DNA of 64,000 nt from Escherichia coli (lineage in GTDB: Bacteria > Pseudomonadota > Gammaproteobacteria > Enterobacterales > Enterobacteriaceae): the NCBI RefSeq assembly GCF_003018255.1, contig NZ_CP027440.1; one strand, 5' to 3'. The notes beneath the pieces are model-generated. The model did no database searches. It worked only from the letters and a program-made list of their open reading frames with translations, and was not told where the DNA came from. A program made the translations under genes and the position numbers. Shown piece by piece: positions 3,448 through 50,303 of the stretch (position 1 is its first letter; each line of letters starts with the position of its first letter).

Positions 3448-3960
3448 TCAGTTTGCTCCCTGTAAGCACCAGGCCATCTCCCGCGCACGGCGGTTATCCA
3501 GCCCCTGATTAAAAACACCTTTCACATAAACCCAGCGCGGCAACTGTCGGCACGCATCCGCCCAGCGCCGCTGATTGAGTAATTTCACCAGTGTGGAACT
3601 GCAGGCATTGCCCGTTCCCACGTTGAAGGCAAACGACACCGCAGCGTCATACACCTTCTGCGGCGGCTGTTGCTTCACACACCTTTCCAGCGCCCGCTCC
3701 ACACGCAGCACGTTGGAGATCAGCCCTTCTGCTGCCTGTCGCTCCGTAATGGTTTTGCCGGGAATGACGCCCGACGTATTACCAATGCCGTCGGTCCAGA
3801 CACCCGCGCTGCACTGATACGGCTGCAGACGACAACCTTCGTAATCGGCAATCAGTTTCAGCCCTTCCACTGAGGTGTGAAGCTGCTGAAAACCCGGCAG
3901 CGTGGCAGCAATAGCCAGCACGGCCCCGACAAGGCAGCGTTTAACGATTGATGGATTCAT
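3448..3960 (-). CDS. Phage endolysin (lysozyme, P2 gpK-like), possibly signal-anchor-release type
   Basis: 170 aa; hydrophobic N-terminus CLVGAVLAIAATLPGF followed by a lysozyme-like domain (EGCRLQPYQC...GIGNT). Confidence 0.85.
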   Translation of the reverse strand: MNPSIVKRCLVGAVLAIAATLPGFQQLHTSVEGLKLIADYEGCRLQPYQCSAGVWTDGIGNTSGVIPGKTITERQAAEGLISNVLRVERALERCVKQQPPQKVYDAAVSFAFNVGTGNACSSTLVKLLNQRRWADACRQLPRWVYVKGVFNQGLDNRRAREMAWCLQGAN

Positions 3961-5576: not shown

Positions 5577-6635
5577 TTACGCTCCGGTTTCTGCTGCGGC
5601 GGCGCTGAAGTCACCAATCTGGATGTTTTCCACCAGTGCAGCGCAGCGATAGTCCTCAACCACATAGGCTTCGTTAACGGATTCAAAATTTTCAATCCGG
5701 TCACGTTTCGGGTTGTCGATAACTGAACGGCGGCGGGTATCTTCCTGCCAGTAGATGGACAGGTTATCCAGACGGGTGATCAGCAGCGCATTCGGCGGGA
5801 AGAACGGCGCACGCACCGCCTGCAGGCCACCCATGCGTTTCTGACTGATGATCATATCGGCAGCCAGTTTTTCACTGTTTTCCTGCTCTTTGTTGACCAG
5901 CGGGAAATACTTGTCAGACAGCAGTTCACGCCCGCAAATCACCACCAGATCGTCATCGTCCTGGTAGACCACGTCGATAAGCTCATTGACCGCATCCATC
6001 ACCACAGCGTCCAGGTTGGCATATTCGCCACCTTTCCCGACTTTCACCGCATCCGGTGTGGTTTCGCCGCCCGTGGTGGTGCTGCCCATGACGTGATCCG
6101 GTGCATCCTCACGGATTTTCTGCAGCCAGCCTTTGTTCACATCCTGCAGCAGCGGGTTTTCACTACGGTTGGAGGTTTTCGCACGCTTCACGCCGTTAAA
6201 GCCGATCATGATGCGGTCCAGTGCCTGACGTTTCACGATGGCGTCACGGATACGCACCTGGAAATCCTGAAACTTCGCCCACAGGTCCAGCTTCGCGTAG
6301 GTCAGCACCGTGTCAAAGTTGGTCTGCTCGCATTTATATTCCACATCGACCATCAGCGTCGGATCGACAGGTTCACGCTCTTTCGCGGTGGTGTCAGTGG
6401 TTCCGGCAATGGTGCTGCCAACACCCAGCCCCAGCAGCTGACCGGACTGCTCAGTCACTGGCGTGACGTTAATCAGCGTCAGGAAAGCGGCGGACTGCTG
6501 GATCTGGTCTTCCAGCGTCTGCTGCACAGACGGCTCCACAGTGAATTTGCTGGACAGTTCTTCAACTGCCACACCGTTCAGACGCGCCAGCTGCTGCAGG
6601 TAAGCGTTAAAAGCAAAGCGGGTATTCTTCTTCAT
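5577..6635 (-). CDS. Major capsid protein gpN
   Basis: 352 aa (P2 N about 357 aa); position O-N-M. Confidence 0.9.
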   Translation of the reverse strand: MKKNTRFAFNAYLQQLARLNGVAVEELSSKFTVEPSVQQTLEDQIQQSAAFLTLINVTPVTEQSGQLLGLGVGSTIAGTTDTTAKEREPVDPTLMVDVEYKCEQTNFDTVLTYAKLDLWAKFQDFQVRIRDAIVKRQALDRIMIGFNGVKRAKTSNRSENPLLQDVNKGWLQKIREDAPDHVMGSTTTGGETTPDAVKVGKGGEYANLDAVVMDAVNELIDVVYQDDDDLVVICGRELLSDKYFPLVNKEQENSEKLAADMIISQKRMGGLQAVRAPFFPPNALLITRLDNLSIYWQEDTRRRSVIDNPKRDRIENFESVNEAYVVEDYRCAALVENIQIGDFSAAAAETGA

Positions 6636-6651
6636 CGGGTTTTGTGCTCCA

Positions 6652-7485
6652 TCAGCAATTGGTCAGAGTGTCAGCGGGGGCGTTACCGCCTGTTGCACGC
6701 TGGCGGTAGTCCTGGCGGCTGTCTTCATGACTCAGCTTGTCCACCAGTTCGTTAAAGGCGGTTTGCTGTGCCTGCAGGGCAGTCTCCAGCTCAGACAGGC
6801 GTTCTTCCTGCTCAGACAGGGATTTTTCGGTGCGTGCGTTCAGGTTCTGCTGCTCAGTGGCGACCAGCTCCACGGCCTTATGCACATCAGAGAACCGGGC
6901 GTCATCGGACTGCTCTTTTTTGGTAAACAGCGCCGTGACGCGGGCAAACAGGGACGGTTTGTCGTCCTGGATTTCTTCCAGTTCGATCACCGTTTCCTCT
7001 GCAGCGGTAAAGAGATTGGCAGGATTCTGCTTGCGGTTTGCCAGCGGGTTATGGGCTGCACTGGCGCTGAATGTCAGCATTTCCGTACCCAGACTGGCAG
7101 GGTCATCAGTGGCAGCCAGGCCGACCAGGTAGGCTTTGCCCGTATCAGCGAACTTCGGGCTGACTTCCATAGAGGTGAATAATTTCTGGCCTTTTTTCAC
7201 CAGTTCCACCAGGGACTCCGTTGGCTCAACGTCGGCATACAGCGCCATCTTGCCTGCCAGCGGACCTTCCGTGATTTCTTCAGCAAACAGCGCCGTCACC
7301 TTGCCGTAGCGGTTAAAGATGCTGTCCGGCAGATAAGACTTGATGTGCTCAAGGTTAATCAGCGCGGTATACACCGCCGGGTTGTAGCTGGCTGCCATCT
7401 GTTCCAGCCATTCACGCTGGATTTCGCGTCCGTCGGTGGTGGCACCTTCCACCCCGATGCGAAAACGCTTTGCTTTCACTGTCAT
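6652..7485 (-). CDS. Capsid scaffolding protein gpO
   Basis: 277 aa; coiled-coil-rich C-terminus; divergent from the P/Q genes as in P2. Confidence 0.85.
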   Translation of the reverse strand: MTVKAKRFRIGVEGATTDGREIQREWLEQMAASYNPAVYTALINLEHIKSYLPDSIFNRYGKVTALFAEEITEGPLAGKMALYADVEPTESLVELVKKGQKLFTSMEVSPKFADTGKAYLVGLAATDDPASLGTEMLTFSASAAHNPLANRKQNPANLFTAAEETVIELEEIQDDKPSLFARVTALFTKKEQSDDARFSDVHKAVELVATEQQNLNARTEKSLSEQEERLSELETALQAQQTAFNELVDKLSHEDSRQDYRQRATGGNAPADTLTNC

Positions 7486-31154: not shown

Positions 31155-31244
31155 TGGCGGAGAGAGGGGGATTTGAACCCCCGGTAGAGTTGCCCCTACT
31201 CCGGTTTTCGAGACCGGTCCGTTCAGCCGCTCCGGCATCTCTCC
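31155..31244 (-). tRNA. serU: tRNA-Ser (anticodon CGA)
   Basis: Minus strand reads GGAGAGATGCCGGAGCGGCTGAACGGACCGGTCTCGAAAACCGG...CTCTCCGCCA with a long variable arm. Confidence 0.9.
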
Positions 31245-31337
31245 GTTCAGATGGTTGCCATGATGCCAGGAAATTTGGCATTTTAACAGTCCCTGTCCGT
31301 GCAATTTTGTTCAAGTGACGAGTTTGCGAGCAAAACG

Positions 31338-32135
31338 ATGATTAAGTGGCCCTGGAAAGTACAAGAATCAGCACATCAAACTGCCCTTCCCTGGCAGGAA
31401 GCACTATCGATCCCCCTTTTAACGTGTCTGACGGAACAGGAACAAAGCAAATTAGTCACTCTTGCCGAACGTTTTTTACAGCAAAAGCGGCTTGTTCCTT
31501 TACAGGGCTTTGAACTGGATTCATTAAGAAGCTGCCGGATAGCACTTCTATTTTGCCTGCCCGTTCTGGAGTTAGGACTGGAATGGCTGGATGGTTTTCA
31601 TGAAGTCTTAATTTATCCTGCGCCATTTGTGGTCGATGATGAATGGGAAGACGATATCGGTCTGGTGCATAACCAACGTATTGTTCAGTCAGGTCAGAGC
31701 TGGCAGCAAGGGCCTATCGTTTTGAACTGGTTGGATATACAAGATTCTTTTGATGCTTCTGGTTTTAACCTGATTATTCATGAAGTCGCTCATAAGCTGG
31801 ACACCCGTAACGGCGATCGCGCCAGCGGAGTTCCCTTTATTCCGTTGCGTGAGGTTGCTGGCTGGGAACACGATCTTCATGCTGCAATGAACAACATTCA
31901 GGAAGAAATCGAATTGGTTGGCGAGAATGCGGCGAGCATTGATGCTTATGCTGCCAGTGATCCTGCTGAATGTTTTGCCGTACTTTCTGAATATTTCTTT
32001 AGCGCCCCAGAACTTTTTGCTCCACGTTTCCCTTCATTGTGGCAACGTTTCTGCCAATTTTATCAACAAGATCCTTTGCAGAGACTGCATCACGCTAATG
32101 ATACAGACTCGTTTTCGGCGACGAATGTTCATTAA
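31338..32135 (+). CDS. mtfA: Mlc titration factor A
   Basis: Start MIKWPWK; HEXXH-type motif (HEVAHKLD). Confidence 0.9.
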
Positions 32136-32235
32136 TTAACAACTTTGCAGATTAATTAACCAATTGAAATGACTTATGAAATTTAGTGTTGACAGACAAA
32201 GTACCGCTAAGTAATATGCGCCCCGTTCACACGAT

Positions 32236-32311
32236 TCCTCTGTAGTTCAGTCGGTAGAACGGCGGACTGTTAATCCGTATGTCACTGGTTCGAGTCCAGT
32301 CAGAGGAGCCA
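32236..32311 (+). tRNA. asnT: tRNA-Asn (GUU)
   Basis: TCCTCTGTAGTTCAGTCGGTAGAACGGCGGACTGTTAATCCG...AGGAGCCA. Confidence 0.95.
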
Positions 32312-32623
32312 AATTCTAAAAATTCGCTTTTTAGCGCAATGTCACTGACCTTAGTTGAGCATTGCTTTTTAACGGATAGCGGGTTTTTGACATCTTAAGC
32401 GCCCTCGACCTTTATGGTTGAGGGCGTTTTGCTATGAACGCCATCACCATTTTCCCCTCGATTACAAAACTTGAGTAATTCAGTAGTCTCCCCTCTTGCA
32501 ACTCACACCCAAAACTGCTTAACGAAAAGTTATTAATTTTCAATCATATTGCTATCAGGATTTACATTTTTTCGCTGTGCTAGAAAGGGCGCATTTATGT
32601 TAGCTCGTTCAGGGAAGGTAAGC

Positions 32624-47590: not shown

Positions 47591-48132
47591 TTGATTTTTA
47601 CTCCAATACCCGAAACCACCAGCCACACTTCATTTGCCGCAGCGGCCAGCTGCTGATTTACCCGCCCGGCAATATCACGAAAATGTCGTGCCAGACGACT
47701 CTCCGGCACAATCCCCATTCCCACTTCGTTAGTCACTAATACAACCTTTGCGGGGCAACGTTGGCAGGCAGCAATCAACGACTGAATCTCAGCATTAATC
47801 GCCTGTTCCATCGCCTGATAATCCCATTCATCAGGGTCTTTATCTCCGCCATAATCAAACAACAGATTAGTCACCATTGTGGTAACGCATTCCAGCAACA
47901 CAGTTTCATGCGGGTTAATGTCTGCATGAATTAATTCATCAAGATGTTGCCAGCGCTCCACCGTGCGCCAGTGCGCCGGGCGGCCTTGCCGATGATGTTC
48001 TATCCGTGCAGCCATCTCATTATCAAGGATTTGAGAGGTGGCGATATACAGAACCTGTGAAGAGTCCCCAATAAGCGCCTCTGCGTGGCGACTCTTCCCG
48101 CTCCGTGCGCCCCCCGTCACCAAAATCATCAT
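47587..48132 (-). CDS. cobU: Adenosylcobinamide kinase / guanylyltransferase
   Basis: Start [14 protein letters not shown] (P-loop) gives about 181 aa. Confidence 0.9.
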
Positions 48133-48264
48133 ACCGACTCCTGATTCAATTGTATGATGGTATTCATTGAACAGAACAATGGATCCCCACCGTTGCTGAC
48201 CGCAAAACATTTACGCGATTAATACTGCGCGTAATACAATTAAAAATCCAGCATTCTCAATCCA

Positions 48265-48771
48265 TTACGAAAGAAGATGGCATTGCGGGATAGCCAGACT
48301 TCCTCGTGTTAACGTACGACAAAATGCGTCATTGACAGCGGTTTCTCTGGAATGACAGATTTCATTCAGATAATGGATTAATGCTACAGCCCCACCAGCC
48401 GGACCAGTCAGCAAACGGGCATTGTGTTCTGCAATCACAATTACCGTCGTTCCTTCAGAATGAGCGAGCCATTCTGGTACGGATATCTCGCTTTCAGCTG
48501 CTATCAATAGCAGCACTGAATAATCGCCATACACATCTGATAACGATTGCACAGGCCCACCGTCAAGAGGCTGGAAATCTTGCTGCCAGTCCTCACCAAC
48601 AAAACAGGTTATTGGCAATATTTCAGCCAGATGTTTCGCCAGGTCCACATCTCCAGATAAGAGGCAAAAAAGAGCTATCGATTCGGGTTTTATCGTTTTC
48701 ATGCCTCTCGCCCTCCACTTAGTTTCCTGTAATGTCGGTCTGGTTGATGAGCCATGAAACAAGATTGCCAC
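48265..48771 (-). CDS. Hypothetical protein, possibly a fused remnant of the deleted cbi operon
   Basis: 168 aa ORF lying exactly where cbiA to cbiP sit in Salmonella, downstream of the riboswitch; no motif recognised. Confidence 0.35.
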   Translation of the reverse strand: MAILFHGSSTRPTLQETKWRARGMKTIKPESIALFCLLSGDVDLAKHLAEILPITCFVGEDWQQDFQPLDGGPVQSLSDVYGDYSVLLLIAAESEISVPEWLAHSEGTTVIVIAEHNARLLTGPAGGAVALIHYLNEICHSRETAVNDAFCRTLTRGSLAIPQCHLLS

Positions 48772-48929
48772 ACCTTAAGTGCAGCCCTGGTGCCTGTCGG
48801 CACTGCGATGAAAGAACTAAATGATGCCGCCATACCCTGATCCTTTCAGGGTGGTAGGGGTATAAAGACGCGCCTGTACTCTACTGGACGCTTCCGGGCA
48901 ACCCACTTCCCACCGAAGTTGTTGGTAAT

Positions 48930-49075
48930 GACTGACTGGCTGGTCTTCTGGCTTAGCGTCATCCTCTCCCGACCTTCCCAATCTCGCGATCAGTGGCATT
49001 TTCGGGTTTGTCAGCATTACAGCAGCGGGGGCTGCGAGGGATTTTCACCCTCTTCCCAGGCACAAATGTGCCACA
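48930..49075 (-). promoter_or_regulatory. Cobalamin (adenosylcobalamin) riboswitch aptamer, cbi-leader type
   Basis: Minus strand reads GGGAAGAGGGTGAAAATCCCTCGCAGCCCCCGCTGCTGTAA...GCCACTGATCGCGAGATTGGGAAGG...AGCCAGAAGACCAGCC, matching conserved riboswitch core and B12-box consensus. Confidence 0.8.
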
Positions 49076-49186
49076 CCTGTCAGCGTATGTTATGAGCTGA
49101 TTTCACTTTTCCCATAACAGGTAAATAACGTTAATTATTCATTGCAGAGTTTATTTAAACCGTCCTCTTTTTTTGGGGCATTTACT

Positions 49187-50101
49187 CTATACCGTTTCCA
49201 TCGCCGCATTTTCATTCACTTGCTGTCGATACACCTGCGGCGTAACCTGATAAGTCTGACGGAAAACTTTGCAAAAATAACTGGTTTGCGAAAAACCTAA
49301 ATTACGCGCAATGCTGGCGATGCTCCAGTCACTATGGCACAGTAACTCACGAGCGCTGGCCATCCGTTGTTGGTTTACCCACGCATTAAACCCAATCCCA
49401 TGGTATTTCTTAAATAACTTGCTGAAATAATAAGGGCTTAGATAAACGTGCGAGGCGACATCTTCCAGACGCAAATCGTCTGATAAATGCGCATCAATAT
49501 AGCGTAAAGCTTTTTTCATTTTATTGTCGTGGGGACCAGGCGCACGAGTCTGGCGCACCGAATCTGACTGAAATTTGTTCTCTTTAATAACAACAAAATT
49601 GAGTTGTTTTTTGAGGCAATTTTCCACAATCAACTTCAACAAATCAGCAGAGGCCATAACTCTTGAGTAATCCATCTCTGGGACTTTGCGAAATTCATTA
49701 AGTAATTCGGGATCTGCCTGCCAGCAATCATCGACATTCAGAATATCGACCAAATCGACATCATCATTACGCAGACGAACTTGCCCGCACAATACAAAAC
49801 CAACTAAATGTCCGGCGATTACCAGTGGAATAGAGAAATCGGTTAATCCGGCATGACAGCGATAAATACAAGGCTGATCGGATTTAGAGGCTTCCAGGCC
49901 CCCACAACGATCGCTCATGCGACATCGAGTACTCAGCTGAGGGTGTTGCCGCATCATCTGACAAAATGGAGTGAAGTTAAACAGCTCGGAAATTTCATCG
50001 CCGTGAATATTGACCACGACAACCGCAAGGCTGGTCGCCTGCGCAAAATCCTGCGCGATTTTATTAATGAGTTCTGAATTAAGTGTCGCCGCAGAAATCA
50101 T
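49187..50101 (-). CDS. pocR: AraC-family regulator of the pdu/cob regulon
   Basis: 304 aa; C-terminal AraC HTH. Confidence 0.9.
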   Translation of the reverse strand: MISAATLNSELINKIAQDFAQATSLAVVVVNIHGDEISELFNFTPFCQMMRQHPQLSTRCRMSDRCGGLEASKSDQPCIYRCHAGLTDFSIPLVIAGHLVGFVLCGQVRLRNDDVDLVDILNVDDCWQADPELLNEFRKVPEMDYSRVMASADLLKLIVENCLKKQLNFVVIKENKFQSDSVRQTRAPGPHDNKMKKALRYIDAHLSDDLRLEDVASHVYLSPYYFSKLFKKYHGIGFNAWVNQQRMASARELLCHSDWSIASIARNLGFSQTSYFCKVFRQTYQVTPQVYRQQVNENAAMETV

Positions 50102-50303
50102 GATAAAACCTCCCAGTTAATTTATTGTTATAGCAAAACAATTGTTTTACATTTAATCTTCACATCATCCTTGATGATTTACTGACGAGAAGCACAAAGG
50201 ACAATAACAAAAGCCTCCGTGAAGCGGGAGACTTTTTAATAAGTTCGGAAAGCAGATCACAAACAGTAAAAAAATAAACGTTTATAACTGCCAGATTATT
50301 TCG

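Follow-up and report, generated by a model that had tools for sequence, protein, structure and literature searches.

A cobalamin riboswitch kept with two relic reading frames after loss of the cbi operon in Escherichia

Introduction

What does a riboswitch regulate once the operon that it controlled has been deleted? The question is raised by a locus of Escherichia coli (RefSeq contig NZ_CP027440.1, of which we analysed a stretch of 64,000 nucleotides, hereafter the window) in which a cobalamin riboswitch lies between pocR and the cobUST genes. A riboswitch that outlives its operon is a natural test of cis-regulator upkeep, setting translation-coupled polarity onto salvage genes against a co-opted gene fragment. 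The individual elements are known already, being annotated automatically by PGAP in RefSeq, where the E. coli copies carry the labels 'riboswitch' and 'hypothetical protein'. Full-text literature searches found no paper describing the Escherichia scar, its riboswitch, their conservation across the genus or the loss of the promoter.

Results

Remnants of the cbi operon between pocR and cobU

The riboswitch occupies positions 49095-48921 of the minus strand, 91 nt past the stop codon of pocR (50101-49187, minus strand), whose product is an AraC-type regulator that activates the pdu/cob regulon (552 bits with NCBIfam NF047788, cutoff 500). pduF (51152-50304) is on the same strand as the riboswitch, and pduA, pduB and pduC run divergently from 51624. 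Downstream, again on the minus strand, are cobU (48132-47587; NF004469, 246 bits against a cutoff of 161), cobS (47590-46847; TIGR00317, 305 bits against 110) and cobT (46835-45756; NF000996, 463 bits against 306), after which ldtA and a tRNA-Asn gene follow on the riboswitch strand. CobU, CobS and CobT, which serve nucleotide-loop assembly and cobinamide salvage, all pass their curated NCBIfam cutoffs, and their genes are intact and adjacent.

A preliminary description of this locus, made from the sequence, had started cobU at 48210 and put it only about 700 bp from the riboswitch. We place the start at the ATG at 48132 (181 aa), as PGAP also does, since the alignment to NF004469 begins only at residue 27 of the longest ORF (207 aa). 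The gap between the aptamer and cobU is indeed short, but measured to the corrected start it is 788 nt. Likewise, the ~17 kb that had been given for the corresponding interval in Salmonella proved too large, since the two landmarks are 14.2 kb apart in both Salmonella arizonae and Citrobacter sedlakii.

The central claim of the preliminary description, that the interval is the scar of a cbi operon deletion, was borne out: between pocR and cobU one can still recognise the cbiA leader and ATG, an N-terminal remnant of cbiG and the final ~140 nt of cbiP. Three deletions made the scar: one took the native promoter-like block and the first ~200 nt of the leader, one ran from cbiA to cbiF, and one began in the middle of cbiG and reached nearly to the end of cbiP. 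The locus that they left, a relic of both ends of the enterobacterial cob operon that occurs throughout the genus, consists of pocR, the riboswitch, a mini-ORF of 44 codons (cbiA'-'cbiF), the cbiG' ORF of 145 codons, the 'cbiP spacer and cobUST. Where Salmonella has a cbiA-cbiP block of 14.1 kb, the window has only the two relic ORFs.

The mini-ORF (48833-48699, minus strand) begins at the native cbiA start (MAAS...), which reads ATGGCGGCA at 48833, and its TGA overlaps the ATG of cbiG' (ATGA). In 8 loci, which represent at least 6 lineages, it is open and ends in a stop/start overlap. All six loci from outside E. fergusonii have 44 codons and a 4-nt overlap with cbiG', and the E. fergusonii form has 49 codons and a native-like 20-nt overlap. 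At the DNA level its homology to cbiA can be followed with confidence no further than ATG+9. The 3' end is assigned to cbiF because of its position, the native-like overlap in E. fergusonii and a weak HY(R/S)KL similarity; the mini-ORF is thus probably a cbiA'-'cbiF fusion relic. A permissive tblastn search with a distant full operon (L004) gave only noise, with no CbiF or CbiP signal in the scar. A terminator-like hairpin lies within the mini-ORF at 48785-48767; its structure is not conserved in E. albertii or in locus L010, and we dropped it as a mechanism.

The larger ORF, cbiG' (48702-48265, minus strand), had been described as a 168-aa orphan, possibly a fusion remnant of CbiA and CbiP. 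It is instead an N-terminal piece of CbiG, aligning to positions 1-125 of 351 in NF004463 (67.6 bits, E 1.1e-18), albeit far under the 546-bit cutoff, and its family profile reaches the CbiG homologue 3eeq in the PDB (E 5e-4). The 168-aa length comes from a GTG at 48771 and is an upstream extension. The best start is the ATG at 48702, giving 145 aa, because all homologues and native CbiG start there (MKTIKPES in the homologues, MNTVKPES in native CbiG; PGAP call WP_000849050.1). Open homologues are 144-156 aa long across Escherichia.

cbiG' has diverged far from its ancestor. GATGIAVRV has become AAESEISV with a deletion of 7 residues, LLSGHxGGAN has become RLLTGPAGGAV, and the derived motifs EDWQQxF and HNARLLxGxxGxAxALIxYLNE are common to the remnants and unlike full-length CbiG. 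A Pfam scan found no domain in cbiG', whereas a full-length relative (P0058) has the CbiG N, mid and C domains. A match of the ORF to Pfam Nup96 (E 0.024) was set aside as chance. A word-indexed protein search with cbiG' returned truncated Escherichia/Shigella forms only, and an exhaustive search returned 31 matches, with the full-length CbiG representative at only 37% identity. The AlphaFold 2 (AF2) model has a mean pLDDT of 62 with residues 118-145 disordered, and a Foldseek search of the PDB gave no fold match at E <= 0.001. On this sequence evidence, cbiG' is a degenerate N-terminal domain of CbiG (cobalt-precorrin-5A hydrolase), CbiG-derived yet no longer a CbiG.

The non-coding spacer between cbiG' and cobU (48269-48133, minus strand) is an out-of-frame relic of the cbiP 3' end. 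Local DNA alignment, for which the closer operons (L011 and L022) were needed to reveal the relic, matches the 137 nt from 48269 to the cobU ATG to the last ~46 cbiP codons of C. sedlakii and Salmonella, the alignments spanning 48269-48100 with C. sedlakii and 48239-48101 with Salmonella arizonae. The relic is one base out of frame with cbiG', whose stop lies exactly at the junction. Where the operon is intact, cbiP ends in a stop codon that overlaps the ATG of cobU.

The aptamer and its expression platform

A scan of the whole window with Rfam (cmscan) found one cobalamin riboswitch, an untruncated match to RF00174 that covers all 189 positions of the model (E 5.8e-26) and, at 107.5 bits, exceeds the gathering score of 31.5. 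The preliminary description had reported an intact riboswitch on the pocR strand, 3' of pocR, and this stands. Functional orthologues in species with full operons score alike, at 107.1 bits (Salmonella arizonae), 107.7 bits (Klebsiella) and 114 bits (C. sedlakii). The B12 box reads AAGCCAGAAGACCAGCC around 48955-48939, and a check of RF00174 membership found the box AAGCCAGAAGACC present. Mutations at conserved positions that might disable the aptamer were sought. The only one is an A.A mismatch at one of the 10 P1 pairs (window position 48937), which occurs in E. coli sensu stricto only; every other conserved position is undisturbed. Among the 75 consensus pairs in an alignment of the aptamer with its relatives, 11 have double-sided changes. 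In E. fergusonii both sides of the helix at columns 129-134/139-144 are altered with pairing kept, and the outgroups have the E. coli state. A conserved hairpin (49118-49089) flanks the aptamer on its 5' side, so that aptamer and hairpin together cover 49118-48921. Judged by its sequence, this is a true RF00174 riboswitch, orthologous to the one in the Salmonella cbiA leader.

The expression platform (48920-48834, minus strand) is nearly identical to those of Salmonella, Citrobacter and Klebsiella. It contains an invariant segment, CCAACAACTTCGGTGGGAAGTGGGT, and an alternative pairing partner, CCCCTACCACCC. The Shine-Dalgarno sequence sits in the loop of the RBS hairpin ACCCTGA-AAGGA-TCAGGGT (48852-48834), whose last base lies 1 nt ahead of the cbiA ATG at 48833; hairpin and start together are almost identical to those of Salmonella and Citrobacter. 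The platform sequence CCACCCUGA is able to pair either with an upstream GGUGG segment or with UCAGGGU, the latter pairing burying the Shine-Dalgarno sequence and the AUG. The MFE fold of the platform shows the alternative GGUGG/CCACC pairing. Folded in isolation, the platform has a z-score of -0.42, which is uninformative alone.

Loss of the native promoter and a model for regulation

The leader had been likened to that of Salmonella cbiA, and much of this likeness stands: in both species the leader follows pocR on the same strand, with a 107-bit aptamer, the same invariant platform segment and a nearly identical RBS hairpin (ACCCUGA...UCAGGGU) and start. The likeness ends at the 5' part, where the promoter-like block and ~200 nt of leader are gone. 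Between pocR and the 5' flanking hairpin, the window has a short, poorly conserved spacer (49186-49119, minus strand), at which enterics with full operons hold ~245 nt more, among them the promoter-like block and the leader's first ~200 nt. The distance from the end of pocR to the B12 box is 485 nt in Salmonella and 236 nt in the window; it is 231-280 nt in Escherichia against 375-708 nt elsewhere.

An alignment of leaders showed that Salmonella, Citrobacter and Klebsiella have two conserved blocks in common between pocR and the aptamer, both of which are missing from all Escherichia loci compared. Block 1, CAATAAATTGTCATAGCGCAA, has TTGTCA-17-AAAAAT inside it and was present in about 45 full-operon loci fetched and in 0 of 7 Escherichia-type loci. 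In Salmonella this block holds the only plus-strand sigma-70-like site of the region (TTGTCA-17-AAAAAT at 3468-3496), and that site would imply a leader of about 475 nt, close to the 468 nt that Richter-Dahlfors and Andersson reportedly gave for the cob leader in 1992. Promoter scans found no promoter-like or sigma-70-like site in 48050-49300, and there is no minus-strand terminator between pocR and the aptamer (49186-49096). The riboswitch has thus lost its own promoter-like block. With no promoter of its own and no intervening terminator, it is therefore most likely transcribed from pocR. Two features of a Salmonella-type leader are consequently lacking in the window, an own promoter with a long 5' leader and a cbi operon to control.

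We give about an even chance to the reading that the riboswitch is a working AdoCbl OFF switch of the Salmonella cbiA type, which would gate the relic ORFs and, via Rho, read-through into cobUST. With B12 bound, the conserved hairpin would hide the Shine-Dalgarno sequence and AUG of the old cbiA start, leaving the mini-ORF untranslated. Translation of cbiG' would be blocked as well, if it is coupled to that of the mini-ORF as the ATGA overlap by itself suggests. The ribosome-free RNA would then be liable to Rho-dependent termination ahead of cobU. When B12 is scarce, the mini-ORF and cbiG' would be translated, and transcripts entering most likely from pocR would continue into cobUST. The result would be a propanediol-induced, B12-repressed component added to the output of cobUST's own promoter(s), and selection would thereby maintain aptamer and platform and keep the reading frames open and coupled.

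The two halves of this model differ in strength: conservation lends good support to the predicted B12 control of the relic ORFs, and B12 control of cobUST is plausible but unproven. As to the first, Ravnum and Andersson are said to have found in 1997 that the Salmonella cob leader represses translation of cbiA via an RBS hairpin. As to the second, translational riboswitches in E. coli can reportedly act via Rho, as Hollands et al. described in 2012, and in the window the riboswitch and cobU lie on the same strand with no conserved terminator between them.

Selection on the riboswitch and the relic ORFs

We compared the window segment by segment, using JC distances, with four nearer relatives (E. 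whittamii, E. albertii and loci L008 and L010) and with E. fergusonii. The aptamer gave distances of 0.05-0.10 to the nearer four and 0.13 to E. fergusonii, with no indels, and the platform gave 0.05-0.11 and 0.08. The corresponding distances were 0.06-0.36, with indels, and 0.85 for the spacer between pocR and the hairpin, 0.23-0.35 and 1.22 for the rest of the mini-ORF, and 0.19-0.24 and 0.53 for cbiG'. The 'cbiP spacer gave 0.11-0.29 for the nearer four and is not comparable in E. fergusonii, where the cobUST region is absent. In flanking genes, dS amounts to 0.3-0.6 against the nearer lineages, roughly 1 against E. albertii and >1.2 against E. fergusonii. The aptamer and the RBS-hiding platform diverge 4-10 times slower than neighbouring synonymous sites. 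They are 88-95% identical even to E. fergusonii, in which the adjoining mini-ORF and spacer are at or near saturation. Because the conservation is so sharply local, neither recent transfer nor a low mutation rate explains it, and the pattern indicates strong purifying selection on the riboswitch across the genus Escherichia.

The relic ORFs evolve under a milder regime. For cbiG', each of the 15 species pairs gives a dN/dS within 0.22-0.61 (Fisher p as low as 6e-11), and both shifted frames give higher values than the coding frame; for the mini-ORF, dN/dS is 0.20-0.59. Values for the neighbouring genes, including cobUST, are 0.01-0.24, and that for cbiG' is 3-10 times higher. If the observed substitutions fell at random, the cbiG' frame would stay free of stops with a probability of 0.07-0.12 for each pair, or 0.01 in the case of E. 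fergusonii. The only indel that separates cbiG' of the four nearer relatives from that of the window is 3 nt long and keeps the frame, compared with gap totals of 2, 8 and 11 columns in the 'cbiP spacer. Overall, these comparisons indicate that the constraint on the relic ORFs is weak but real.

Could the riboswitch and ORFs nonetheless be pure relics, without present function and kept by chance or by hitch-hiking with pocR? Both the regulated operon and the native promoter are gone, and in most E. coli the entire element has been lost at no obvious cost, as this explanation would allow. It is disfavoured, however, by the sharply local conservation of aptamer and platform, and also by the accumulation of double-sided, pair-preserving changes and by ORFs that have stayed open in all lineages, their dN/dS falling below 1 in the coding frame and in no other; we consider it very improbable. 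Since the switch and the two leftover ORFs are kept under selection across Escherichia, the riboswitch probably still regulates something.

Distribution of the scar in Escherichia

Among 5426 complete E. coli genomes, pocR is present in 644, the riboswitch with the mini-ORF in 644 (12%; all copies are chromosomal and single-copy) and the cobU region in 5397, with 88% of the genomes having cobUST without the riboswitch. In genomes that lack pdu, the deletions end inside cbiG'. One end lies at ~48605 beside a pduV fragment (strain H7 type), one at ~48436 beside IS5 (K-12 type; about two thirds of genomes, as judged from 20 of 30 evenly spaced rows) and one at ~48391 in O157:H7; there are also a few other end positions.

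E. whittamii and E. albertii have the scar too, as do two more Escherichia lineages that are filed as E. coli (E69 and SCPM-O-B-8794); in all of these the riboswitch scores 109-113 bits and lies exactly 218 nt ahead of the cbiG' ATG. Protein clusters add E. marmotae and E. ruysiae for cbiG'. In E. fergusonii the riboswitch, the mini-ORF and a 156-aa cbiG' are present with ldtA directly next, and cobUST is absent from the locus; this species is unlisted among the salvagers carrying CobU/S/T in a published metabolic reconstruction (PMC8123684). The E. albertii type strain has a cobU pseudogene and has lost cobT by deletion, while cobS and both relic ORFs are intact. Because the remnants share derived characters (the 7-residue deletion, the loss of GATG and the motif RLLTGPAGGAV), the scar predates the radiation of the genus.

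This distribution weighs against control of cobUST. The salvage genes need no riboswitch, as the 5397 genomes with cobU and the 644 with the riboswitch attest, and the frequency of the riboswitch in E. coli equals that of pocR rather than that of cobU. The riboswitch and ORFs also persist in E. fergusonii, which lacks cobUST at this locus, and in the E. albertii type strain, in which cobUST has decayed, although this is weak counter-evidence because the losses of cobUST could be recent. A simpler explanation would have the riboswitch act directly and chiefly on cobUST, with the ORFs as inert filler. The shared strand, the 788-nt distance and the lack of a conserved terminator would suit it; repressing salvage genes by B12 also makes physiological sense and is common among cobalamin riboswitches. 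We regard it as distinctly unlikely, however, since both ORFs stay open, coupled and under some constraint, and most E. coli maintain cobUST with no riboswitch. In addition, the 'cbiP spacer is fairly conserved, as expected if it holds a promoter of cobU's own, and Lawrence and Roth reportedly described several promoters for cobUST of E. coli K-12 in 1995.

A different possibility is that the selected target lies on the pdu/PocR side, either as a new role for the cbiG' protein (as an anti-activator or in corrinoid handling) or as an effect of a 3' UTR riboswitch on the fate of pocR mRNA. The equal frequencies of riboswitch and pocR would fit, as would the persistence of riboswitch, mini-ORF and cbiG' without cobUST, or with a dead cobU and no cobT. 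The frame-specific purifying selection on cbiG', the derived motifs conserved among the remnants and the loss of the native promoter, which makes co-transcription with pocR probable, point the same way. Two observations also sit badly with the OFF-switch model: a need for translation alone would not predict constraint on cbiG' at the amino-acid level, and there is the P1 mismatch in E. coli. On the other hand, adjacency to pocR alone could account for the matching frequencies, the AF2 model of cbiG' is weak and has no significant fold match, the LLSGHxGGAN motif of CbiG is degraded and no Pfam domain is left. Moreover, dN/dS for cbiG' exceeds that of its neighbours, and we know of no precedent for a CbiG N-domain acting alone. 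A target on the pdu/PocR side is thus possible, if on the unlikely side, and an OFF switch acting through translation of the relic ORFs is the reading that we prefer.

Discussion

The Escherichia riboswitch resembles several characterised systems and differs from each. In Firmicutes, B12 riboswitches are tied to regulators of pdu and eut, as with AspocR of Listeria and EutX of Enterococcus. The Listeria RNA Rli55 likewise ties a B12 riboswitch to the regulator of a B12-dependent microcompartment pathway (PMC5282855). AspocR, Rli55 and EutX share with the scar a cobalamin riboswitch adjoining such a regulator, in a host to which availability of the cofactor matters. They are, however, antisense or sequestering non-coding RNAs with transcription terminators, whereas the scar riboswitch is in sense orientation, 3' of pocR, with an RBS-sequestering platform and coding relics.

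Within E. coli, the cobalamin riboswitch of btuB is a translational OFF switch that hides the RBS (PMC5282855). It is of the same Rfam family and in the same host genus as the scar riboswitch, but it has its own promoter, serves a functional transporter gene and is universal in E. coli, whereas the scar riboswitch is found in a minority of complete genomes and is followed by gene remnants. Short ORFs have been linked to B12 riboswitches in Mycobacterium tuberculosis, where translation of uORFs is reported to be gated and linked to downstream expression (PMC11260477). The parallel is limited by the unrelated lineage and by the atypical aptamers there, and the short ORF of the scar is instead a relic of cbiA fused probably to cbiF.

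The scar records a history of the B12 genes in Escherichia in which an ancestor had contiguous pdu, pocR, cbi and cobUST, cbi was lost by internal deletions with pdu kept, and most E. coli later lost pdu and the riboswitch through the deletions that end inside cbiG'. This history bears on the Lawrence-Roth debate over 'loss and reacquisition'.

If the riboswitch only trims read-through into cobUST, it is a tidy but ordinary case; the upside would come if the cbiG' fragment proved to be a co-opted, B12-regulated protein. Pdu-positive E. coli, which make up 12% of complete genomes, include gut and pathogenic lineages in which propanediol use matters, and a B12-sensing input beside pocR would be a directly testable regulatory node. 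If the selected target does lie on the pdu/PocR side, Escherichia, unable to make B12, would gain an input of B12 availability to the pdu regulon. We think it doubtful, and offer it tentatively, that after losing B12 synthesis Escherichia recruited the cbiG' protein or the riboswitch-bearing 3' region of pocR as a B12 input to the propanediol-utilisation regulon. Were this so, the locus would be a proteobacterial counterpart of the logic of AspocR, Rli55 and EutX in Firmicutes, and a gene fragment would have become a new B12-repressed small protein, conserved for the lifetime of the genus.

Haplotypes beside cobU follow pdu status

We compared the cobU-proximal segment of the window (48100-48436), which is common to both pdu-negative and pdu-positive E. 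coli, with its counterparts in other E. coli genomes. Identity to the pdu-negative, K-12-type genomes was 92-92.6%, whereas identity to pdu-positive genomes was 97-98.8%. These values indicate that the segment exists as two deeply diverged haplotype classes that follow the presence or absence of pdu.

Variants of the scar and loci with doubtful labels

We observed one variant at the junction between the mini-ORF that begins at the native cbiA start codon and cbiG', the remnant of the CbiG N-terminus. In a cbiG' homologue from a Logan contig (P0001), 2 nt are missing directly before the cbiG' start (window 48715-48720), and this loss joins the mini-ORF and cbiG' in frame, giving a single 188-aa protein from the cbiA ATG. 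E. coli Combat13F7 (NZ_CP019245.1; H67) was the only genome with a partial riboswitch segment (query positions 150-416). Because this segment adjoins a gene for ATP:cob(I)alamin adenosyltransferase, it suggests a local rearrangement.

A metagenome-assembled contig named 'Citrobacter sp.' (L006) shares 95-99% identity with the E. coli scar, and is therefore probably Escherichia DNA. The locus labelled 'Escherichia sp. MOD1-EC7003' (L036) has a cbiG of the full-length type, the promoter-like blocks found between pocR and the aptamer in full-operon enterics, and a PocR with 85% identity. Either its label is wrong or it represents a lineage in which the operon is intact.

RNA genes in the surrounding region

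The interval that separates pduF from pocR contains, on the strand opposite to both genes, a match to the STnc230 sRNA (window 50162-50245, + strand; 76.3 bits against a gathering score of 50), which is accompanied by a terminator-like hairpin. This position is common to E. fergusonii, Salmonella, Klebsiella, Citrobacter and other Escherichia loci. Elsewhere in the window, positions 31155-44703 contain a tRNA-Ser(CGA) gene together with four tRNA-Asn(GTT) genes that are identical in sequence and alternate in strand; nac and ldtA are close by. This is the E. coli serU/asnT-W-U-V neighbourhood, which places the window in E. coli or a very close relative; the soil strain VCSW7 gave the best match, at 98.8%.

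Decay or absence of cobUST in related species

The E. fergusonii locus (L005) is without cobUST. Its cbiG' remnant is followed by 226 nt (6472-6697) that include a REP-like palindrome, and then by ldtA, and a glycyl-radical-enzyme microcompartment cluster is on the far flank. In E. albertii NBRC 107761 (L009, 950-2390), cobU is a frameshifted pseudogene that has lost the P-loop, and cobT is deleted. The cobS gene of this strain is nevertheless an intact 247-aa ORF with a dN/dS of 0.02 relative to E. coli, a lone cobalamin synthase gene retained by selection.
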